Positions 5,536 through 64,000 of a stretch of 64,000 nt of DNA are shown in pieces. The position numbers and the translations under genes were made by a program. How positions within the stretch are numbered: the first letter of the stretch is position 1; the number at the start of each line of letters is the position of its first letter. Origin of the DNA: a virus (Duplodnaviria; Caudoviricetes); IMG/VR virus record IMGVR_UViG_3300032232_001415, positions 1 through 64,000 of that record. One strand, 5' to 3'. The notes beneath the pieces are model-generated. The model was given only the letters and a program-made list of their open reading frames with translations. It was not told the DNA's origin and did no database searches.

Positions 5536-6537
5536 ATGGGTAAAGGATTGGATGTGGGCACAAGTTTTATAGTATTATCTCAAGATTCATCTGATGGAGT
5601 AGTTTATAAAGATTTTAGAGATGCGTTTTATATAATAAAACCTACAACACCAGTAGCTACAAAAATGATTGAGAAAGGATTATCTGGAAAAATATTCATA
5701 AAGGATACTGATGGATCTTTTGTAATACTAGGAAAAGATGCTATTGAAAAAGCAATCGAGAGAAATGATAATGCCAAAAGACCCATGAGCAAAGGGGTTG
5801 TATCCGCCAAAGAAAAGGACGCAAAGCGTGTTCTAGCCTTTATTTTAAAAGAAGTGGCCGGTCAGGCATCAGAACAAAATGAGAAACTCGTATTCTGTGT
5901 TCCTGCACAACCAGTTGATCAAGAAGATGAAGACTTTGATGTTGGATACCATGAAGATGTAGTAAAATCTATTTTAGCAGAATGTGGTTATGATGCTAAG
6001 GCTATTAACGAAGCAGAAGCATTGTGTTATGCAGAACTAGGAGATGAGGATTATACTGGTATAGCAATATCATGTGGGGCCGGAATGACTAATGTTTGCG
6101 TAATGTTAAATGGAGAACCAACTGTAGTATTTAGCACAACTAAATCTGGTGATTGGGTTGATCGTATGAGTGCGGTAGCCACTGGAGAAAAAGATAGTGT
6201 TGTTCAAGCAGAAAAAGAAGGTGGTGGATTTACTATTGGAGAAAGTAATGAAAATCCGGTTTTATCTGCGGTTTCTTCGTATTATGAAAGATTAATTGAC
6301 TATACCACAAAACAGTTAGCATTTGCATTATCTAGTCATAAATCTTTACCAAAATTTAAAAATCCACTAACAATAGTTGTTGCTGGAGGAACGTCTCAGG
6401 CAAAAGGATATATTGATATTTTTACTAAAAAATTATCAGAAAATAACTTTCCTTTACCTGTCAAAATTGTTAAACACGCTAATGATCCACTACATGCGGT
6501 TTCAAAAGGGTGCTTGATAGCAGCAAAAGTTCTTTAA
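5536..6537 (+). CDS. Actin-fold ATPase (MreB/MamK superfamily, volactin-like)
   Basis: Phosphate-1 GLDVGTS, connect-1 INEAEA, phosphate-2 ISCGAGMTN, adenosine VVAGGTS, connect-2 PLHAVSKG. Confidence 0.85.
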   Translation: MGKGLDVGTSFIVLSQDSSDGVVYKDFRDAFYIIKPTTPVATKMIEKGLSGKIFIKDTDGSFVILGKDAIEKAIERNDNAKRPMSKGVVSAKEKDAKRVLAFILKEVAGQASEQNEKLVFCVPAQPVDQEDEDFDVGYHEDVVKSILAECGYDAKAINEAEALCYAELGDEDYTGIAISCGAGMTNVCVMLNGEPTVVFSTTKSGDWVDRMSAVATGEKDSVVQAEKEGGGFTIGESNENPVLSAVSSYYERLIDYTTKQLAFALSSHKSLPKFKNPLTIVVAGGTSQAKGYIDIFTKKLSENNFPLPVKIVKHANDPLHAVSKGCLIAAKVL

Positions 6538-49371: not shown

Positions 49372-50103
49372 TTGAGAAAAAATACTAAAGGTAAGAAGAA
49401 AAAAGTAATTGATGCTACCAAACCATTGGTAAATGAAAATAGTGGACATGCTTATAGAAATAGGCTAAAACCACGCACAGACAATCAAAAAGAATATATT
49501 CGTACCATAGCTGAAAATACCATCACCTTTTGTCAAGGACTAGCGGGAAGTGGAAAAACTCATATTGGTATTGGTATGGCAATAGAGTATTTATTAGATG
49601 CAAAAGTAAAAAAGATTGTAATAACTAGACCAGTTATTGAGGCTGGTGAAAAAATTGGATATTTGCCAGGAACCGCAGAAGAAAAACTTCATCCTTATCT
49701 ATTACCGATAATAGATGAAATACATCATTTTATTTCTCCTGCTCATTATGCTAGTTTAAAACTGAATAATAAAATAGAAGTTGTTCCACTCGGTTTAATG
49801 AGAGGTCGTAATTTTCATGATTGTTTCATAGTTGCAGACGAGTGCCAGAATGCATCATATGAACAACTAAAAATGTTAATAACAAGAATAGGTAAAGATA
49901 GTAAACTAGTATTAACTGGAGATGTGGGTCAATCAGATTTACATAGACACATACAGGGTGGATTCATTGAAATGATTAACAATCTGAATGATATAGATGG
50001 AATAGGAATTTCTAAATTAGAATCTTCTGATATTGTTAGAAATCCTATTATTGCAAAAATTTTACTAAGACTAGAATCTTATGAGAACGGAAATACAAAA
50101 TAG
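49372..50103 (+). CDS. phoH: PhoH-family ATPase
   Basis: GLAGSGKT, ITRP, GYLPG, MRGRNF, DECQN, TGDVGQSD, VRNP. Confidence 0.93.
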   Translation: MRKNTKGKKKKVIDATKPLVNENSGHAYRNRLKPRTDNQKEYIRTIAENTITFCQGLAGSGKTHIGIGMAIEYLLDAKVKKIVITRPVIEAGEKIGYLPGTAEEKLHPYLLPIIDEIHHFISPAHYASLKLNNKIEVVPLGLMRGRNFHDCFIVADECQNASYEQLKMLITRIGKDSKLVLTGDVGQSDLHRHIQGGFIEMINNLNDIDGIGISKLESSDIVRNPIIAKILLRLESYENGNTK

Positions 50104-50662
50104 TAAATGTCTAGTACTAAATGCTGACTACACGCCATTAAAAGTAATAGATTGGCAAAAAGCAATCTTATTATCTGTAAAATGTTCTATAACATCAAAA
50201 TGTAGTGTTGAAATTATTGAATACTATAATGATAGGCATATTCATGGTGTTTGTGGAAAAGTGTATAAGTTACCCAAATTAATAAGAACCACCAAATATT
50301 TTAACTTGTATAATAAACCAATGAATTTTTCTAGAAAAAATTTGTTTATAAGAGATAAATATACTTGTCAATATTGCGGGATGCAACATGCTACTAATCA
50401 TTTAACATATGATCATATTATACCAAAATCCAGATTTAAAGGACAAAAGCACCATTGTACGAATTGGGAAAATATAGTTACGGCATGTATAAAATGTAAT
50501 CATAAAAAAGGCAACAGAACACCGTCCGAAGCCAATATGAAATTAATAAAATCTCCAATTAGACCAAATTACTCTCCAGAATACTTGCCTTGGGTGGATG
50601 ATCTCGATACTATAAAAGACGATGATGAAATCATGAAACTCTGCAGACCATACCTAGGATAA
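50081..50662 (+). CDS. HNH endonuclease
   Basis: LVLNADYTPL, RD.YTCQYCG, DHIIPKS, WENIVTAC..CN..K. Confidence 0.9.
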   Translation: MRTEIQNSKCLVLNADYTPLKVIDWQKAILLSVKCSITSKCSVEIIEYYNDRHIHGVCGKVYKLPKLIRTTKYFNLYNKPMNFSRKNLFIRDKYTCQYCGMQHATNHLTYDHIIPKSRFKGQKHHCTNWENIVTACIKCNHKKGNRTPSEANMKLIKSPIRPNYSPEYLPWVDDLDTIKDDDEIMKLCRPYLG

Positions 50663-54906: not shown

Positions 54907-55297
54907 TTTATCTCCAGAACAAATTCAAACAATGATTTCTATGTTACAGGCAATGCTTCCTCAAACCGAGGCAGTATCGAAGAAAAAAAAGGATGCCATA
55001 CACAGCTCCCCCGCTAAAAAAACTAAGAAATTATTACCATCGACATCAACAAGAAATAAAAATAAATCAGTCAGGACTAATAAGTTTGTTGATATGCCAG
55101 AGAAAGCTATGCACAAAGAAGATGTAGCAATAGATAAAAAACTGTCTGTAAGACCTCCGGTCCCCAGAGCCCGATCTTTTAAACTGGTCAAAGTAGTATG
55201 CAGAGTTTGTGGAAAGAGAGAAGAAGTCAGTCCTGGACTTATCCACGAATCCATCGATAGATATAAGTGTAACAAGTGTTCGACCTCCAGCGGGTGA
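54899..55297 (+). CDS. Basic protein with C-terminal Zn finger
   Basis: CRVCG...YKCNKC. Confidence 0.6.
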   Translation: MDNLSPEQIQTMISMLQAMLPQTEAVSKKKKDAIHSSPAKKTKKLLPSTSTRNKNKSVRTNKFVDMPEKAMHKEDVAIDKKLSVRPPVPRARSFKLVKVVCRVCGKREEVSPGLIHESIDRYKCNKCSTSSG

Positions 55298-55300
55298 AAA

Positions 55301-56767
55301 ATGATTTTATGTGATCCTTCTGCCGAAAGGGCAGTATTGGCGGGAATTTGCAGTTACGGCGATGACGCATATTTGGATATTGCTGACATAGTTCAAGAAA
55401 CTTCTTTTACTATAGATAGCAATATTGTGATATATAAATGCTTAAAAAAGCTTTGTGAGCTAGATACAAAAACAAAAATAGATATAGCATCAATATACTC
55501 TATAGCTCAAGAGCTTGGCCTCGATCATATTCTTTCTAAAAAAGAAGAAACTCAACACCTAAAAGCTATTATGGATTTTCCTGTAAGTCAGGAAAATATA
55601 AGAAGATTTGCAGCAAAAATACGTAAGCTAGAAATAGCAAGACTATTAAGACAACAGCTAGAATTAGCTCAGAATAAAATTTTAGACGTTACGGGAAGCG
55701 AGTCCATATCATCTATAATCGGTCTTGCCGAAGACACGATCTTTAATTTTACGTCTTTGCTTAATGATGGAGATAGTGGACCAGAAAAAATTGGTTCAAC
55801 AATAGAAGAGTATATTAGAGATCTAGAAGAGAACAAAATTGATCAAGTTGGCATACCAACAGGATTTCCTATTTATGATCAATCAATTGGAGGAGGATTA
55901 AGAAAAGGTACTATTAACGTTATCGGAGCTAGACCAAAAACTGGAAAAACTCTTTTATCAGATAATATGGGTCAAAATATAGCTAAACTTGGTATTCCAG
56001 TTTTAAATATGGATACCGAAATGAATAGAGAAGACCATATTCATAGACTATTAGCTATGATGACAGAAATTGAAATCAATGCAATTGAAACTGGTAAATT
56101 TGCTGATTCTCCAGATACTAAAAATAAAATATCAAAAGCGGCACTTGATATCAAGAATATGAATCTGTATCATAAAAGTATAGCCGGAAAACCTTTTGAG
56201 GATCAATTAGCAATAATGAGAAGATGGTTAGTAAAAGAGGTTGGATTAAATGATGACGGAACTGCAAAAGATTGTGTTATATTTTATGACTATTTAAAGC
56301 TAATGGATAGTGCGGGAATCTCTCAGGATATGAAGGAGTATCAAGTATTGGGATTCATGATGACAAGTCTGCATAATTTTGCTGTTAGATATAAAGTTCC
56401 AATCGTGGCATTTATACAGTTAAATAGAGATGGCATAACCAAAGAAAGCACAGACTCTGCCAGCGGATCTGATCGTATAATATGGTTATGTAGTAACTTT
56501 ACAATTTTTAAAAGAAAGAGTGATGAAGAAATAGCGGAGGATGGTCTTACAAATGGAAACAGAAAATTAGTTCCTCTTATTAGTCGTCACGGCGGTGGAC
56601 TAGACGATAATGATTATATAAATTGTTATATGAAGGGCTGGTGTGCTAAGATAACAGAAGGCAAAACAAGATTAGAATTACTGAATAAAAAATCAAAGGA
56701 TGATGAAGGATTTATATTAGATAATGAAAACTCAAATAATGATGAAGAAGAAATTCCATTCGAATGA
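55301..56767 (+). CDS. dnaB: DnaB-like replicative helicase
   Basis: AERAVLAG, GIPTGF, GARPKTGKT, DTEM, DYLKLM, QLNR, SGSD. Confidence 0.92.
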   Translation: MILCDPSAERAVLAGICSYGDDAYLDIADIVQETSFTIDSNIVIYKCLKKLCELDTKTKIDIASIYSIAQELGLDHILSKKEETQHLKAIMDFPVSQENIRRFAAKIRKLEIARLLRQQLELAQNKILDVTGSESISSIIGLAEDTIFNFTSLLNDGDSGPEKIGSTIEEYIRDLEENKIDQVGIPTGFPIYDQSIGGGLRKGTINVIGARPKTGKTLLSDNMGQNIAKLGIPVLNMDTEMNREDHIHRLLAMMTEIEINAIETGKFADSPDTKNKISKAALDIKNMNLYHKSIAGKPFEDQLAIMRRWLVKEVGLNDDGTAKDCVIFYDYLKLMDSAGISQDMKEYQVLGFMMTSLHNFAVRYKVPIVAFIQLNRDGITKESTDSASGSDRIIWLCSNFTIFKRKSDEEIAEDGLTNGNRKLVPLISRHGGGLDDNDYINCYMKGWCAKITEGKTRLELLNKKSKDDEGFILDNENSNNDEEEIPFE

Positions 56768-57890
56768 TCAGGCCAAACTTAAAATAGTTTGCGATGATCT
56801 TTGTGATAATATTGAACTGCTATTGGAGACCTTAGATATAAAATATATCCTAAGATCTAAAATGGCCACTATGGCATGTCCGATACATGATGGAGATAAC
56901 GCGTCGGCCTTAAATATATATACTGAGGGTGATACATACAGAGGAAATTGGAAATGCAGAACACATAATTGTGAAAAAATTTTTAAGGGATCAATTATAG
57001 GTTTTGTTAGGGGTGTCATCTCTAATAGAAAATATAAATGGCAAAAAGATGGAGATGATACCTGTTCTTTTAATGAGGCTTTAGATTTTTGTCTATCATT
57101 AATCAATAAAGACTTAAAAAATATTAAAATTTCTAAAACTGATAGAGATAAGAAAAATTTCACGAATATAGTATCTAACCTTCAGACAAATCATTCATCT
57201 AAGGTTGTTAATAAAGTTAGTAGAGAAAAAGTCAGATCAACATTATCTATTCCATGTCAATATTTCGTTGATAGAGGATTTTCTAAAGAAATATTAGATA
57301 AGTACGATGTTGGTCTATGTGATAATCCAAATAAAGAAATGTTTAACAGGGGTGTTGTTCCAATCTATGATAATGATTATCAATATTTAGTAGGATGTAC
57401 TGGAAGAAGCATTTTTGACAAATGCCCTAAATGTAAAAGTCACCATAAAAATATAGACAATTGCCCAATAGAGTCCGACCTTTGGAAGCATCCAAAATGG
57501 AAACATAATTTTGATTTTAAGAGTCAAAATCATCTTTATAATTTTTGGTTTGCTAAAGAGCATATCTTGAAAAGTGGCACAGCAATAATAGTTGAAAGCC
57601 CAGGAAATGTTTGGAGATTGGAAGAAAACAATATACATAATAGCGTAGGAATTTTTGGATCATCATTAAGCGATAGACAAAAAATTATTCTTGATTCTTC
57701 TGGCGCTATGAACTTAGTGATACTCACAGACAATGACGAAGCTGGTAAAAAAGCTGCTATTCAGATTAAACAAAAATGCCAAAATACGTACAGAGTTTTC
57801 ATATTGAATATTACCAAATCTGATGTTGCCGAAATGAATAGTTCAGATATTGATTCAGAAATTAAATCCTATTTAGAGAATATTAAATGA
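56724..57890 (+). CDS. dnaG: DnaG-like primase (Zn-binding plus TOPRIM)
   Basis: CPIHDGDN..WKC...C, GRS, IIVES, DNDEAG. Confidence 0.88.
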   Translation: MKTQIMMKKKFHSNDQAKLKIVCDDLCDNIELLLETLDIKYILRSKMATMACPIHDGDNASALNIYTEGDTYRGNWKCRTHNCEKIFKGSIIGFVRGVISNRKYKWQKDGDDTCSFNEALDFCLSLINKDLKNIKISKTDRDKKNFTNIVSNLQTNHSSKVVNKVSREKVRSTLSIPCQYFVDRGFSKEILDKYDVGLCDNPNKEMFNRGVVPIYDNDYQYLVGCTGRSIFDKCPKCKSHHKNIDNCPIESDLWKHPKWKHNFDFKSQNHLYNFWFAKEHILKSGTAIIVESPGNVWRLEENNIHNSVGIFGSSLSDRQKIILDSSGAMNLVILTDNDEAGKKAAIQIKQKCQNTYRVFILNITKSDVAEMNSSDIDSEIKSYLENIK

Positions 57891-58459
57891 CAAAAATAAT
57901 AGCATTCGCTGGACGAAAACAATCTGGAAAAACTACATGCTCTGAATTTTTATCACAAAATTATAGTGGTAGTTCAAAGATTTATAATTTTGCTGATCCT
58001 CTCAAAAAAGATATTTGCATGGGAATATTAGGTATGAGCTATAATCAATGTTATGGGTCAGATGAATATAAAAACACCCTTACTGAATGCTATTGGAATA
58101 ATAAGCAGATGACAGCAAGAGAAGTCATGCAATTTGTTGGTACTGATCTTTTTCGTCAGATGAAAAATGACGTATGGGCTAGTGCTACTATAAATAAGAT
58201 TATTATAGAAAAACCAGAATTGGCTATAATTGCGGATTGCAGATTTCCAAACGAAGTTGAGTCAGTAAAAGATGCTGGTGGAATAGTTATAAAACTTATG
58301 CGCAATCCATACAATTCTAACCATCTGAGCGAAATAGCATTAGATATAGAGAATTATAACCCTGATAATTTTGATTTAGTTGTAGATAATACATCTATGA
58401 ACATAGATGAACAATATCAGTGCATACATTCATTTTTATTACAGAGGAATATACTATGA
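57887..58459 (+). CDS. Deoxynucleoside monophosphate kinase
   Basis: AGRKQSGKTT, FADPLK, TAREVMQFVGTD, DCRFPNE, HLSE. Confidence 0.9.
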   Translation: MTKIIAFAGRKQSGKTTCSEFLSQNYSGSSKIYNFADPLKKDICMGILGMSYNQCYGSDEYKNTLTECYWNNKQMTAREVMQFVGTDLFRQMKNDVWASATINKIIIEKPELAIIADCRFPNEVESVKDAGGIVIKLMRNPYNSNHLSEIALDIENYNPDNFDLVVDNTSMNIDEQYQCIHSFLLQRNIL

Positions 58460-58986
58460 GCGAAACAAAAAATATAAAACATTTAGTATCAGATTTCTGT
58501 GTTGGTTTAGGCATAGATATAGGATGCGGTGGCGACCCGGTTGCGCCAGATGTTCTTAGGTTTGATTTAAAAACACCATACACCCAGGAGAACAATTATC
58601 CGGCACAATTTATACTGAAAGAAAAACCAATATTATACTATATAAACAATAATTCTCTAGACTATATCTATAGTAGCCATCTAATAGAAGATTTTTTTTA
58701 TGAGGAACTTAAAGTCATAATAGCAGATTGGTTTCGAGCTTTAAAAGTTAATGGAAAACTCATATTGTGTGCCCCTGACCAAAAAGAATATATAAGACAT
58801 AACGAAGAAGTTTTAGGTATAAATAGATTCGACCATAGAGTTAATCAAGCTCATAAAGAGCAAGATTTCTCTATTGATACTTTTATAAATAATGTGTTAT
58901 CTCATATATCTATACAATATAATACAATCTTATCAATTCCGTCCATCAAACCATACTCATGGATTTTAATCCTAGAAAAATTATGA
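58456..58986 (+). CDS. SAM-dependent methyltransferase
   Basis: IDIGCG, SSHLIED, W.RALK..G.L....PD. Start ATG 58456 overlaps the upstream stop. Confidence 0.8.
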   Translation: MSETKNIKHLVSDFCVGLGIDIGCGGDPVAPDVLRFDLKTPYTQENNYPAQFILKEKPILYYINNNSLDYIYSSHLIEDFFYEELKVIIADWFRALKVNGKLILCAPDQKEYIRHNEEVLGINRFDHRVNQAHKEQDFSIDTFINNVLSHISIQYNTILSIPSIKPYSWILILEKL

Positions 58987-60026
58987 TTATTACCTATCTA
59001 AGAAGTAGTTCATACGGTACGCACTCGATGTGTCCTCAACAATATTTTTTTGAATATGTTCTAGGATGGAAATCTCCATCTAATAAAAAAGCTGATAAAG
59101 GCACAATTTGCCACAAGGTCTTAGAAATTTTAGCACATATTAAACTTTGTTCTCAAAATAAAGAAAAAATATATACTGATGATATACTTGGCGATATAAA
59201 TATCAAAAAATATGATATAGTAGATATATCTAACAGAGTTTACGAATATTATACCAGCCTTTTCACTCATCATGTGTGGGAGAATAAAGATCTAAAAGAT
59301 TGTATACTGTGGGTTAATAAGGCATTAACAGAGCATAATGGAACATTCGATCCAAGGAACAGGGATATTCTACAACCCGAACAAAGATTTGACATAGTAA
59401 TAGAAAAGCCGTGGGCTAAATTCAAATATAAAACACCAACAGAGAATCTGGAAGGTTATTTGGCAATAAAAGGAACTATCGATCTAATAACAAGAGTTAA
59501 TGAAGATACCATAGAAGTTATAGATTGGAAAACAGGAAGAAGATTAGACTGGGCTACTGGTGAAGAAAAAACACTAGCTAAGCTACAAGACGATCCTCAA
59601 CTAAGAATATACCACTATGCTGTTAGCAAACTATATCCTGATATAAATCATATTATGATAACGATAAATTTTATTAATGACGGTGGAGCGTTTACTATCT
59701 GCTATGATAAAAAAGATTTATCGAAAACCGAAGATATGATAAGACATAAGTTTGATAAAATAAAAAACACAAAAACTCCAGAATTGAATAAATCGTGGAA
59801 ATGTAATAAACTTTGTCATTTTGGAAAAACAACATTTGAAAATACAAATATTCTTCCAATATTAGAGTATCGTGGTGGACAATTAGTTCAAGTCGATAAG
59901 CCTATGACCAAATGCGAACAAGTTAAGCATGATATCGAACTCAAAGGAATAGACAATGTGATTGACCAATATACCGTCTCAGGATACAATATTGGTAGTT
60001 ACAAACCCCCAGGAAGTGCAGAATAA
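58983..60026 (+). CDS. Cas4/AddB-like PD-(D/E)xK exonuclease
   Basis: CPQQY, KGTICH, GTIDL, IDWKTG, QLRIY and C..LC...C Fe-S ligands. Confidence 0.85.
   Translation: MIITYLRSSSYGTHSMCPQQYFFEYVLGWKSPSNKKADKGTICHKVLEILAHIKLCSQNKEKIYTDDILGDINIKKYDIVDISNRVYEYYTSLFTHHVWENKDLKDCILWVNKALTEHNGTFDPRNRDILQPEQRFDIVIEKPWAKFKYKTPTENLEGYLAIKGTIDLITRVNEDTIEVIDWKTGRRLDWATGEEKTLAKLQDDPQLRIYHYAVSKLYPDINHIMITINFINDGGAFTICYDKKDLSKTEDMIRHKFDKIKNTKTPELNKSWKCNKLCHFGKTTFENTNILPILEYRGGQLVQVDKPMTKCEQVKHDIELKGIDNVIDQYTVSGYNIGSYKPPGSAE
59962..59990 (+). promoter_or_regulatory. Sigma70-type promoter for the dnaE operon
   Basis: TTGACC-N17-TACAAT, ending 35 nt before the dnaE ATG. Confidence 0.65.
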
Positions 60027-61897
60027 TGAATTATATTCCTCTCCATTGTCATTCCATGTTTAGTCTGTTGGATGGATTATCAAAACCTTCGCAGATTGCT
60101 GATAGGTGCCTAGAAATCAATGCGACCTCATGTGCATTAACCGATCATGGAAATATAGCTGGCGCTATCAAGTTTTATACTGAGATGAAGTCACGCGGCA
60201 TAAAGCCAATTCTTGGTTGCGAAATATATCTGTGTGAACAAGATCCAAAAATTCAAGAAAAGTCCAACAAAGATTTGACACATTTTATAGTTTTGGCCAA
60301 AAACTACCAAGGATGGAAAAATTTAATCAGGCTAGTGTCTGAGTCCAACAGACCAGACTTTTATTATCACAAGCCACGCCTCAATCTGGAGTCTCTGGCA
60401 GCATTCTGTGACGGTAACCTAATAGGATTTTGCGGCCATCTAGGATCACTCTTGGCAGATAAAATTATTGACCAGAATAAAATAATTGAGGATTGGCAAA
60501 ATGTTGGAGTGGAGATAATAGCCAAATTAAAGAAAATATTTGGTGAAGATAATTTTTTTCTAGAAGCTCAGTTAATGGATTGTGAAAATACCCCAATACA
60601 AAAAGAATTAACAGATATAATAAGAAAGTTGGGAAAAATAACCCACACTAAAGTAATATGCACACCAGACGCTCACTACTGTAAAAAAGAAGATGCTAAT
60701 GATCAAAGAATTTTATTATGCAATAATCTAAAAACAACATTTCCTGATATTAGTAGAAAAATCAGTAACGATGAAGATGTTCCGTTATCCTGTTTTTTTA
60801 CTTCTGATAATTTTCATATTCTCTCACAAGAAGAAATGAGAAACTTGCACACAGAAGAAGAAATTGCTAATACTAATTATGTAGCATCTTTATGTGAAGA
60901 ATATAATATTCTTAGTAAACCAAAATTACCACCATTCAAATGTCCTGAAGGATATAATCCAGATGAATACCTAAGACAACTTTGCAGAAATGGCTGGAGA
61001 GATAAGATAGCTAATAAAATCAAACAAGAAGATCAACAAATATATATTGATCGCATAAAATACGAATTAGATGTTCTACAGGGCGCTGGGCTGTCAAGTT
61101 ATTTTCTTATTGTTCAGGATATTGTTGATTATGTCAGAAAAAATAAATGGCTACCCGGACCAGGAAGAGGAAGCGCAGCAGGATGTCTGGTATCATACTT
61201 AATAGGCATAACTAGTATAGATCCGATTAGATATAATCTATTATTTGATAGATTTTATAATGCTGGAAGAAATACTGCTGATCGTATTTCAATGCCAGAT
61301 ATTGATGTTGATGTGCCAATAGATAAAAGAGAAATTATAATTGATTACATTAAAAATAGATATGGTCATGACAAAGTATCTCAAATGGTCACATTTAATA
61401 CCATTAAGGGACGAGGGGCCTTAAAGGATGTTTTAAGAGTTTATGGTAATATATCATTTGATGAGATGAATAAAATTACAAAAAATATTCCTGATGAAGC
61501 AAAAATTGCGGATGAACTCCAAGAGATGAAAGATGAGACGGGCGAGGCATCTATCATAAGATGGGCTTTGGAAAATAATCCAGAAAAATTAAAAGAATGG
61601 TGTTTTATCGACGAAAATAACGAATTACAAGGACCACTTGCAAAAAGGTTCGAGCAGGCTATAAGATTAGAGGGCACAAAGTCCAACCAATCCAAACATG
61701 CTGCTGGTATAGCCATTAGTGCAGAGCCGCTGAACATAACTTGCCCAATGGTATATGATGCAAAAAATGAACAATCTATAGCTGGTATGGAGATGCAAGA
61801 CTTGGAATCAATAGGTATTATAAAATTTGATATTTTAGGTGTAGCAATGTTGGACAAAATAATGACTATTCAAGATATTCTTAAAAATGGAGGATAA
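60026..61897 (+). CDS. dnaE: DNA polymerase III alpha, N-terminal half (PHP, palm, thumb)
   Basis: LHCHSMFSLLDG, TDHGN, GPGRGSAAG, MPDIDVD, HAAG; ends after KFDILG. Confidence 0.93.
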   Translation: MNYIPLHCHSMFSLLDGLSKPSQIADRCLEINATSCALTDHGNIAGAIKFYTEMKSRGIKPILGCEIYLCEQDPKIQEKSNKDLTHFIVLAKNYQGWKNLIRLVSESNRPDFYYHKPRLNLESLAAFCDGNLIGFCGHLGSLLADKIIDQNKIIEDWQNVGVEIIAKLKKIFGEDNFFLEAQLMDCENTPIQKELTDIIRKLGKITHTKVICTPDAHYCKKEDANDQRILLCNNLKTTFPDISRKISNDEDVPLSCFFTSDNFHILSQEEMRNLHTEEEIANTNYVASLCEEYNILSKPKLPPFKCPEGYNPDEYLRQLCRNGWRDKIANKIKQEDQQIYIDRIKYELDVLQGAGLSSYFLIVQDIVDYVRKNKWLPGPGRGSAAGCLVSYLIGITSIDPIRYNLLFDRFYNAGRNTADRISMPDIDVDVPIDKREIIIDYIKNRYGHDKVSQMVTFNTIKGRGALKDVLRVYGNISFDEMNKITKNIPDEAKIADELQEMKDETGEASIIRWALENNPEKLKEWCFIDENNELQGPLAKRFEQAIRLEGTKSNQSKHAAGIAISAEPLNITCPMVYDAKNEQSIAGMEMQDLESIGIIKFDILGVAMLDKIMTIQDILKNGG

Positions 61898-61899
61898 TT

Positions 61900-62085
61900 A
61901 TGGCGATCAAAAAATTTATGGATTTGTCTATTGGTGATAAATTCAAATTAAATGGTATTAATTATGTTAAGATTCAAGAAGAGAGAATTAGTTGTTGTCA
62001 GGTTATAAATGCCTCACAAGAAGATTTACCTAGTACCAGAATACAGGTTACTCCAATAACGGAAGTGGAAACAGATATTAACTAA
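61900..62085 (+). CDS. Small hypothetical protein between the dnaE halves
   Basis: GGAGG RBS; 61 aa; SH3/KOW-like LSIGDKF...YVKI. Confidence 0.65.
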   Translation: MAIKKFMDLSIGDKFKLNGINYVKIQEERISCCQVINASQEDLPSTRIQVTPITEVETDIN

Positions 62086-62786
62086 TGATAAACTATAATA
62101 AAATATGCGTTTTTGATTTTGAAACAGACGGTTCTGACCCGTCCGTGTGTAGTCCCGTTCAAATGGCTGCTGTAATTGTTGATCCAATAAAATTGGAAAT
62201 AATCCCAAAATCAGAATTTAATATCTTTTTTAAACCAGAAGTATTGGCAAAAGACGATAATTATGTATATGAAACTGACATTCTAGATTTTCATTCTAAG
62301 GTTAGAGGATGCTCCAAGGATGAGATTCTAGAAACTTGGAAAAAGTATCCATCACAAGATCAGTCGTGGAAAATTTTTACTAATTACCTTGAAATGTATC
62401 ACACAAGAGCGTCTAAGAAAAGCCAATTTAGTGCTCCAATAGCCGCTGGATATAACATTAATAGGTTTGATTTGAGAATAATTAATAGATTAAGTAAAAA
62501 ATATGGTAATGTAAATAAAGAAGAAAATTCAGATATTTTTTTTCCAAGAGATGTTTTAGATATAATGAATTTGGTTTTTTATTGGTTTGAACACAATGGT
62601 GACTTAAAAAGCTATTCACTAGATACTTTAAGAGATTATTTTGGTATTTCAAAAGAAGGTGCTCATGATGCTCTTAAAGACGTTAAAGACTGTGCAAATA
62701 TAATGATAAGATTTCTTAAGCTACATAGAAGCCTATCAAATAAAATAAAATTTAAAGATTCATTTTTGGAAGCTATTGATAAATAA
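62085..62786 (+). CDS. dnaQ: DEDDh 3'-5' exonuclease (DnaQ/epsilon-like)
   Basis: FDFETDG, GYN..RFD, AHDALKD. Confidence 0.85.
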   Translation: MINYNKICVFDFETDGSDPSVCSPVQMAAVIVDPIKLEIIPKSEFNIFFKPEVLAKDDNYVYETDILDFHSKVRGCSKDEILETWKKYPSQDQSWKIFTNYLEMYHTRASKKSQFSAPIAAGYNINRFDLRIINRLSKKYGNVNKEENSDIFFPRDVLDIMNLVFYWFEHNGDLKSYSLDTLRDYFGISKEGAHDALKDVKDCANIMIRFLKLHRSLSNKIKFKDSFLEAIDK

Positions 62787-62796
62787 AAATAAATAT

Positions 62797-64000
62797 ATGA
62801 CAAAAGAATTTTGTTATCCATGCGGATGTTCTTTCAAAGTCTTGGAAGAAACTAAAGATTTTCCTAGGCTAGAATTTACCCCTATAATAGAAGATATTAA
62901 TTTAGAATGTTCAAAAACATGGGAACTAATATCTGATGGTAACACCAAGGGATGTTTCCAATTAGAAAGCAGACTAGGTCGATCAATAGCTAAAAAACTT
63001 AAACCAGAGAATGTTGAACAACTATCAGCGTTGATTAGTATTTTAAGACCAGGATGTTTGGAAGCTATACGAGATGGTAAAAGCGTAACAAATCATTATA
63101 TAGATAAAAAAAATGGTAAAGAATCCATAGACTACTACCATCCTGCTCTAGAACCAATACTAAAGACAACATACGGAGAAATGGTATATCAAGAACAAGC
63201 AATGGAAATTGCAAAAGTTATTGCTGGATTTAATTTACAAGAAGCAGACATGTTAAGAAAAGCCATCGGTAAAAAGAAGCCAGAAGAAATGGCAAAGGTA
63301 AAAGAAAAATTCTTGTCTGGTGCTAAATTAATAGGAAAGGTTTCAATAGATGAGGCAGAAGAAATTTTCGGATGGATAGAAAAAAGCCAAAGATATTCAT
63401 TTAATAAGTCCCATTCTGTTAGTTATGCTATAAATGCATATTTATCTGCTTATACTAAAGCACATTTTCCTAAAATATTTTTTGCTTCATATCTAAGATT
63501 TGCAAAAGATAAGATTGATCCAAAAGCAGAAATAAAAGAATTAGTCCAAAATGCAAGCGAAATGGATATAAATGTTTATACTCCTGATATCAGAAATATA
63601 AATAAATTATTCATCTTAAAAAATAATGGTATATATTTTGGCTTAACGGATATCAAGGGTTTTGGTAATTCTGTATACGATAAATTATTGGCTATTCTAG
63701 ATAAAAAATCAATAGAAATAGAAAAGCTTAATTGGATACAAATGCTCTGTCTTGTATTACAGGATATTAATTCTACAGCAGCAAAAGCCCTCATAAAGTC
63801 AGGTGCTCTATCGTATATAAAAAAAACAAGAAACTCGATGTTATTTGAATACGAATTAATCAGCCAGCTAACTAAAAAAGAATTAGAATATATCAATAAA
63901 AATATATATGGATATGAAACACTCGATCAAGCATTATCTAGTCTAATAAAGCTAGGAAAGATCAATAAAAAAAGATTAATAAATGTTCAAAATATATTGT
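62797..64000 (+). CDS. dnaE: DNA polymerase III alpha, C-terminal half (fingers, HhH); runs off the window end and is missing from the ORF track
   Basis: Translated by hand: INLECSKTWELISDGNTKGCFQLES, LISILRPG, TYGEMVYQEQ, ADMLRKAIGKK, YSFNKSH, IYFGLTDIKGFG. Confidence 0.92.
   Translation, partial: MTKEFCYPCGCSFKVLEETKDFPRLEFTPIIEDINLECSKTWELISDGNTKGCFQLESRLGRSIAKKLKPENVEQLSALISILRPGCLEAIRDGKSVTNHYIDKKNGKESIDYYHPALEPILKTTYGEMVYQEQAMEIAKVIAGFNLQEADMLRKAIGKKKPEEMAKVKEKFLSGAKLIGKVSIDEAEEIFGWIEKSQRYSFNKSHSVSYAINAYLSAYTKAHFPKIFFASYLRFAKDKIDPKAEIKELVQNASEMDINVYTPDIRNINKLFILKNNGIYFGLTDIKGFGNSVYDKLLAILDKKSIEIEKLNWIQMLCLVLQDINSTAAKALIKSGALSYIKKTRNSMLFEYELISQLTKKELEYINKNIYGYETLDQALSSLIKLGKINKKRLINVQNIL

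Follow-up and report, generated by a model that had tools for sequence, protein, structure and literature searches.

Genes at the dnaE locus

We analyzed a window of 64,000 nucleotides (nt), the whole stretch of DNA taken from IMG/VR record IMGVR_UViG_3300032232_001415 (Caudoviricetes), whose 3' end carries four tightly packed genes on the plus strand in the order dnaE-N, a small open reading frame (ORF), an exonuclease gene and dnaE-C. The first and last of these encode the alpha subunit of DNA polymerase III (Pol III) as two separate proteins. The dnaE-N gene (60026..61897) encodes 623 amino acids (aa) comprising the PHP domain, palm and thumb part of Pol III alpha; the small ORF (61900..62085) encodes a 61-aa protein; the third gene (62085..62786) encodes an epsilon-like DEDDh 3'-5' exonuclease of 233 aa; and dnaE-C (62797..64000, running off the window end) encodes the fingers, the HhH (beta-binding) domain and an OB fold. 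The first-pass annotation had listed these four ORFs, including a dnaE-C that was missing from its ORF track, and all are present where it placed them. In another assembly of the same genome (L087:10716-12341; Lnnn denotes related loci and Pnnnn representatives of N-half homologues) dnaE-C could be read at full length; it encodes 541 aa and is followed by ssb. While DnaE is usually a single polypeptide of ∼1000–1200 aa, we found two ORFs of 623 and 541 aa with two genes between them, adding up to 1164 aa, or what would be one normal alpha without the tau-binding tail. The arrangement is identical in four independent assemblies of the genome (JGI, JGI+NCBI, ENA and Logan), and both halves lie within a replication module with DnaB, DnaG, SSB and RecA.

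Intergenic spaces in the unit measure 2–10 nt. The start of dnaE-N overlaps the stop of an upstream PD-(D/E)XK nuclease gene (TAATG), and a second TAATG joins the stop of the small ORF to the start of the exonuclease gene. The last codons of dnaE-N (GGA GGA TAA) form the Shine-Dalgarno sequence of the small ORF (GGAGGA, 61886..61891, plus strand, as read from the sequence), 8 nt before its ATG at 61900, and ten bases separate the end of the exonuclease gene from the ATG of dnaE-C at 62797. Given these overlapping or adjacent stops and starts, and a Shine-Dalgarno sequence inside the last dnaE-N codons, the four genes would probably be co-expressed from one transcript. A promoter had been proposed ahead of the unit, and a promoter-like sequence matching 10 of 12 consensus positions does occur at 59962-59990. 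However, it lies inside the coding region of the upstream nuclease gene, and the number of such sites in 55000-64000 is at chance level (54, compared to 49.5 ± 6.9 in shuffled sequences), and we therefore do not retain it. Scanning the same region for terminators found none.

Domains and motifs of the two halves

The N-terminal half carries a PHP domain (PF02811, 128.8 bits, residues 6–182) in which the metal-ligand histidines H41, H86, H138 and H217 are conserved, followed by a complete palm (PF07733, profile positions 1–260 of 260, residues 314–605, 245 bits). Its catalytic aspartates, D425 and D427 in PDIDVD (61298-61306) and D602 in KFDILG (61829-61831), align with the motifs of Thermus aquaticus alpha, and the stop codon comes 21 residues past D602. 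DnaE-N can be aligned up to residue 629 of T. aquaticus alpha and residue 564 of Escherichia coli alpha.

In DnaE-C we identified the fingers (PF17657, profile positions 22–163), a match to HhH_6 (PF14579), and the motifs RKAIGKKK and YSFNKSH. An AlphaFold2 model of this half folds confidently alone, with a predicted local distance difference test (pLDDT) score of 86.8, and matches both E. coli alpha residues 573–1075 (Z 20.2, root-mean-square deviation (rmsd) 8.9, 467 aligned residues) and Mycobacterium tuberculosis DnaE1 residues 606–1099 (Z 20.1, rmsd 4.5, 457 residues). The protein ends with the OB fold, itself a structural match at Z 11–12, and the alignment stops at E. coli residue 1075; judged by length and alignment, a tau-binding domain appears to be absent. 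The sequence ‘SMLF’ was considered as a clamp-binding motif and dropped, as the structural alignment places the E. coli motif ∼40 residues further on.

The NCBIfam superfamily model TIGR00594 covers DnaE-N at profile positions 1–572 (486.5 bits) and DnaE-C at positions 582–1022. The break thus costs only ∼9 positions, near E. coli alpha residue 575, and the two halves abut. The cut falls beyond the helix following the third aspartate, in a short linker at the boundary of the palm and fingers domains.

The product of the third gene matches RNase_T (PF00929) at 45 bits, compared to a cut-off of 24, and phrog_192, ‘DNA polymerase exonuclease subunit’, at E 1.4e-23. It contains the motifs ExoI (D11/E13), ExoII (D129) and ExoIII (H194/D199, Hx4D).

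Absence of intein and intron signals at the break

An intein-free split at the palm/fingers junction was the central claim of the first-pass annotation, and it stands. A Pfam scan found no Hint or intein domain in DnaE-N or DnaE-C, while the same scan detected Intein_splicing, LAGLIDADG and Hint domains at other sites in three N-half homologues (P0152, P0139 and P0185). Neither an IntN at the end of DnaE-N nor an IntC at the start of DnaE-C is present. In fractured genes, split intein halves flank a homing endonuclease gene (Dassa et al., 2009, PMC2677866); the genes between the halves here encode a barrel protein and a DEDDh exonuclease, with no intein or endonuclease domain. The claim that the cyanobacterial split-intein site is uninterrupted also holds, since the cyanobacterial N and C models (NF007079 and NF005616) meet at residues ∼193–200 of the C-terminal half, at an intact YSFNKSH, elsewhere than this break.

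No Rfam match at E ≤ 1 was obtained in a permissive scan of 59800-64000. As a control, group I introns (RF00028) were detected in the fragmented dnaE of Bacillus phage vB_BceM_WH1, one in each of its two gaps (L081:4193-4806 and 5891-6215, E 1.8e-4 and 1.5e-5). The dnaE of the window is a gene in two parts, with its catalytic motifs intact and with no sign of an intein or an intron. In the record of WH1, a 230-kb phage, the exons around the two introns stand as three coding sequences each annotated ‘DNA polymerase III subunit alpha’, and the introns themselves are unannotated.

Conservation and evolution of the split

The expectation that split point and gene order would recur in related phages was borne out in two sets of sequences. 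Among 80 related loci from an IMG/VR scan, ∼73 keep the order N-terminal half, small ORF, exonuclease and C-terminal half, with identities to the window proteins of 59–85% for DnaE-N, 57–83% for the exonuclease and 59–83% for DnaE-C. A phmmer search of 1.84 billion cluster representatives returned 7,657 proteins at E ≤ 1e-30, of which we examined the best 150 (39–73% identity). At the level of 50%-identity clusters, 140 of these best 150 representatives end at the site where DnaE-N of the window ends; the rest include six contiguous forms, one with a cpYpsA SLOG domain and two that are truncated.

In a FastTree phylogeny of the 150 N-regions, 146 representatives fall in one clade with support 100. 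Contiguous dnaE in close relatives had been named as a finding that would tell against a genuine split, and contiguous relatives at 45–50% identity do exist, but they are nested inside the split clade, so the split stands. The six contiguous forms make up two small subclades, for which the smallest strongly supported enclosing clades hold 31 rows (support 100) and 30 rows (support 97). An ancestral split followed by two re-fusions would be the most parsimonious reading, and the contiguous forms are likely re-fusions, although their count is provisional, the tree being a quick one. They lie in the same replication module (DnaB, DnaG, DNMK, PDDEXK, DnaE, SSB and glycosyltransferases), and in one of them, L097, the exonuclease gene is upstream of dnaE. 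More distant contiguous relatives are found in a gut phage (1153 aa) and Bacillus phages (1034 aa), and in phage Jayan dnaE is split at another site.

A Cys-rich gene is found a short distance upstream of the re-fused dnaE in two loci (L096:4331-5050 and L097:4985-6031), overlapping the dnaE start in L097. The two products share a terminal DRID...GY.KDNIQI.HK motif that we read by eye as HNH-like, and an HNH-like gene beside a re-fused dnaE suggests endonuclease-driven rearrangement.

Some N-half homologues depart from the common form. P0152, P0139 and P0185, of ∼1000–1400 aa, have LAGLIDADG inteins between GSAAG and C in the palm, with a further intein in the PHP domain of P0185; despite these inteins, their C-terminus is still at the split site. 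In P0256 the split-site end is replaced by a C-terminal fusion to a circularly permuted YpsA SLOG domain (PF12694, E 1.6e-35). In L071:3211-4927 the N-terminal half is read in two frames (query residues 2–422 and 457–622), which could reflect a frameshift, an error in sequencing or decay of this copy.

The two halves also behave as independent genes. A 3.6-kb insertion of five unrelated genes separates the exonuclease gene from dnaE-C in L040 (10734-14226); they encode an FkbM methyltransferase, a DUF1559/N-methyl protein, ThyX and two other products. The halves of L091 (46% identity, a 205-kb contig) are separated by seven genes, among them those for uracil-DNA glycosylase (UDG), the exonuclease and an ATP-grasp protein. 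The basal locus L090 has the order N-terminal half, UDG, a 150-aa gene, exonuclease and C-terminal half, and in L079 a Dcm methyltransferase gene directly follows the N-terminal half. From these layouts, the position of the exonuclease gene between the halves is constant over the depth of the clade that was sampled, whereas the other content changes. In the deeper split lineages the gene of the uracil-DNA glycosylase family stands ahead of the exonuclease gene (L090:3648-4181 and L091:9498-10067).

The cysteine-containing leader and the 61-aa protein

The reading frame of dnaE-C is open from 62776, and we place the true start at ATG 62797 because every relative has a methionine a few residues before a conserved CGC. 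The protein begins with a leader of ∼30 aa (62797..62910, plus strand) with the consensus M-x-K-x-F-x-Y-x-C-G-C-x-F ... F-x-P-x-I-x-x-I-N-L-x-C-x-K-T-W. C9, G10 and C11 (62821-62829) and C38 (62908-62910) are invariant. The CYPCGC motif noted earlier in this leader is thus sustained in its CGC part, while its first cysteine varies among relatives. AlphaFold2 models the leader inside the C-terminal half alone as a structured hairpin (strands 4–6 and 12–17, pLDDT 83–85) with CGC in the turn, and the structural alignment of DnaE-C to alpha starts only at residues 13–23. The CGC leader is present in L076 and L091 and absent from L090, from Rossellomorea phage phiT1 and from the contiguous relatives, whose junctions contain no CGC element. 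It is probably a docking or stabilizing element acquired after fission. An intramolecular cluster of C9, C11 and C38 with C87, C432 or C447 is possible.

The 61-aa protein is conserved in ∼70 loci, at 32–64% identity to the window copy, with F15, K24, C32, C33 and V56 invariant; the Cys-Cys pair is encoded at 61993-61998. Its AlphaFold2 model (pLDDT 93.5) is an SH3-like, all-beta barrel of five strands, of which the nearest folds, both weak matches, are domain I of EF-P/eIF5A and Tudor. No match to the protein was found in Pfam, PHROG or NCBIfam, and an ESM Atlas search returned only viral ‘hypothetical protein’ clusters. It is limited to the subclade of the window and is single-copy in genomes that have it; a hidden Markov model of the protein found no match in loci L076–L079, L082, L090, L091, L096 and L097. 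Identity with theta/HOT was considered and is ruled out by the fold, which is an all-beta barrel and not a three-helix bundle.

The first-pass annotation had suggested that the Cys-Cys pair of the small protein and the CGC of the leader form a metal clasp between the proteins. CGC is kept in L076/L077 and L091, loci that lack the small protein, and no cysteine column of the N-terminal half is specific to the CGC-bearing lineages, so this clasp is unsupported. The modeled leader, moreover, is already structured within the C-terminal half alone.

Probable assembly of the two chains and alternative explanations

We consider it likely that two separately translated DnaE-type chains rebuild the palm/fingers interface non-covalently. 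The N chain would supply the PHP domain and the palm with its three catalytic aspartates, and the C chain the fingers with their deoxynucleoside triphosphate-binding motifs RKAIGKKK and YSFNKSH, the HhH duplex-binding domain and the OB fold; each chain alone would have an incomplete active site. The DEDDh exonuclease would be the most likely proofreading partner, and an epsilon-like role for it has, in our estimate, an even chance of being correct. A role in the complex for the 61-aa protein is guesswork, and doubtful. Non-covalent assembly, the exonuclease as a subunit and roles for the leader or the small protein are what we infer from the locus, and it is the gene order that points to physical assembly of the halves with the exonuclease or the 61-aa protein. 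The earlier picture of a heterodimeric C-family replicase working with the exonuclease and the small protein is thereby kept as far as the split is real and conserved and the halves are independent, and loses its metal clasp.

Several observations weigh against this interpretation. No Shine-Dalgarno sequence lies near ATG 62797. The exonuclease matches the NCBIfam epsilon model NF004964 weakly (25.7 bits, compared to a cut-off of 236), and because it is only weakly similar to bona fide epsilon it could instead serve repair or recombination. The PHP domain of DnaE-N, with its metal-ligand histidines conserved, might itself proofread. Finally, among 50,697 phage records the best tblastn match has 35% identity and blastn gave no match, leaving no close cultured relative and no cultured member of the clade.

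A more elaborate account treats the split as an adapted architecture. The replicase would be an obligate multi-chain enzyme in which a Cys-knuckle hairpin (CGC...C) docks on the N chain at the palm/fingers seam, with the exonuclease, and in this subclade also the SH3-like Cys-Cys protein, built into that seam; the architecture would be ancestral to a very large aquatic clade of big phages and have been reversed twice by re-fusion. We regard this as rather unlikely. If true, C-family polymerases would have integrated proofreading in a third way, in addition to the insertion in PolC and the epsilon tether.

It is improbable that the halves no longer cooperate as a polymerase, whether they have taken separate roles (for example, the N-terminal half as a PHP nuclease or phosphoesterase) or are decaying while a host polymerase replicates the phage. 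The apparent absence of a tau-binding domain would fit such a loss, as would our failure to find a beta sliding clamp (PF02768) in five related genomes rated 100% complete (L080, L069, L028, L020 and L063; 159–229 kb, two with terminal repeats), although divergent clamps could escape this search. However, all polymerase motifs are kept in both halves across more than 140 clusters at 50% identity, and the halves stay together in one replication module. Moreover, two lineages have re-fused the halves into an alpha of normal length, which is sensible only if they still form one enzyme.

That the halves are ligated into a single chain once translated, through a cryptic split intein or other chemistry in the manner of cyanobacterial DnaE, is very improbable. 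Natural split DnaE inteins exist, inteins occur in N-terminal halves of this clade and the C-terminal leader has conserved cysteines. Against this, the 21 residues past D602 leave no room for an IntN of ∼100 aa, the leader has no terminal HN followed by a Cys/Ser/Thr junction, and the Pfam scan that finds inteins elsewhere in the family finds none here. The basal locus L090 and phiT1, furthermore, share this split site yet lack any leader.

Equally hard to credit is an ORF-bearing, intron-like element removed at the level of RNA, even though phage dnaE can be broken by group I introns, as in WH1, and Jayan shows a split at another site. The Rfam scan was negative, the spaces of 2–10 nt between the genes speak against it, and the intervening proteins are as strongly conserved as DnaE itself. 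The intervening content ranges from 0.9 to more than 3.8 kb of ordinary genes, unrelated genes can come after the N-terminal half, and the tail of DnaE-N and the leader of DnaE-C would need to be removed too. An artefact of assembly or gene calling (a chimeric contig or frameshift errors) is negligible, for although the contig is metagenomic and the related L071 has a frameshifted N-terminal half, the four independent assemblies and dozens of diverged contigs agree and the intervening genes are complete and conserved.

Comparison with known split polymerases

Pol III alpha is treated as a single-chain protein, with one textbook exception that is repaired by trans-splicing. In that exception, the split DnaE of cyanobacteria, alpha is also encoded by two separate genes, but the break lies inside YxFNKSH and is repaired by protein trans-splicing, whereas the break described here is ∼200 residues earlier and comes with no intein parts.

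Split phage replication enzymes that assemble non-covalently from the products of two cistrons are known in PolB of the T4-related Aeromonas phages 25 and 44RR and in NrdA of phage Aeh1. The gp43A and gp43B proteins of phage 25 co-purify and are active, and the halves of Aeh1 NrdA assemble through terminal tails needed for function (PMC2988022, PMC3045599). By analogy, the CGC leader may correspond to the NrdA tails. However, Aeromonas PolB belongs to the B family and the present enzyme to the C family. The PolB and NrdA splits are also recent and lineage-restricted, with homing endonucleases or an untranslated spacer, in contrast to a split that marks a very large clade and has as intervening gene an exonuclease that would be a functional partner.

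Group 2.2 jumbo phages contain a minimal Pol III alpha split into N and C proteins; this form is a core lacking PHP and other domains, its genes are far apart, and the phages also have a family B replicase (Iyer et al., 2021, PMC7824862). This is likewise a Pol III catalytic module split in large phages; in the window, by comparison, the full DnaE architecture of ∼1164 aa is encoded in one replication operon. PolC of Firmicutes resembles the locus in belonging to the C family and in having a DEDDh exonuclease encoded within the polymerase sequence. The PolC exonuclease, however, is an in-frame domain inside the PHP domain of one polypeptide, while the exonuclease of the window has its own gene, located where the palm and fingers of a two-chain, DnaE-type enzyme meet. 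The gene set, in which a DEDDh exonuclease and a small protein accompany a polymerase, also suggests the alpha-epsilon-theta core of E. coli Pol III, from which it differs in having alpha in two chains, a small protein with an SH3-like barrel and not a theta/HOT fold, and apparently no tau-binding C-terminal domain.

A further parallel is an isolate, Rossellomorea phage phiT1 (PV767480; L082:3989-7271), in which dnaE is split at the same linker into gp20 (573 aa) and gp18 (469 aa), with gp19 (49 aa) between them. At 34% identity, phiT1 is placed by FastTree as sister to the clade with weak support. It has no exonuclease gene between the halves and no CGC leader, and gp19 shows no relationship to the 61-aa protein. 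As an isolated phage that shares the split site, phiT1 could be used for experiments. In its record gp20 and gp18 are both annotated plainly as ‘DNA polymerase III subunit alpha’.

In the literature we found no account of a DnaE that is split without an intein and has an exonuclease nested between its parts, though our coverage was incomplete and novelty is not proven. Split phage replication enzymes are already known, and as far as we could find this is the first of its kind for the C family. The split extends to 140 of the nearest 150 clusters at 50% identity and to thousands of metagenomic sequences, and it marks the palm/fingers boundary as a natural, evolvable seam. Such a natural system could be used directly to study closure of the fingers on the palm or to construct split or modular polymerases of the C family, and it raises the question of why the exonuclease gene remains between the halves over long evolutionary distances. 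There is also a practical consequence, as annotation pipelines give both halves the name ‘DNA polymerase III subunit alpha’ or overlook the C-terminal half, and surveys of viral replicases may miscount such halves or discard them as fragments.

Other features of the window and related loci

One of the genes inserted in L040 encodes a protein with an N-terminal methylation motif and DUF1559 (PF07596, E 4e-41), a combination that we take to be typical of Planctomycetota and that points tentatively to a planctomycete as the host of these phages. Upstream of the replication module of the window, an HNH endonuclease gene (50081-50662; PF14279/PF01844) adjoins phoH (49372-50103).

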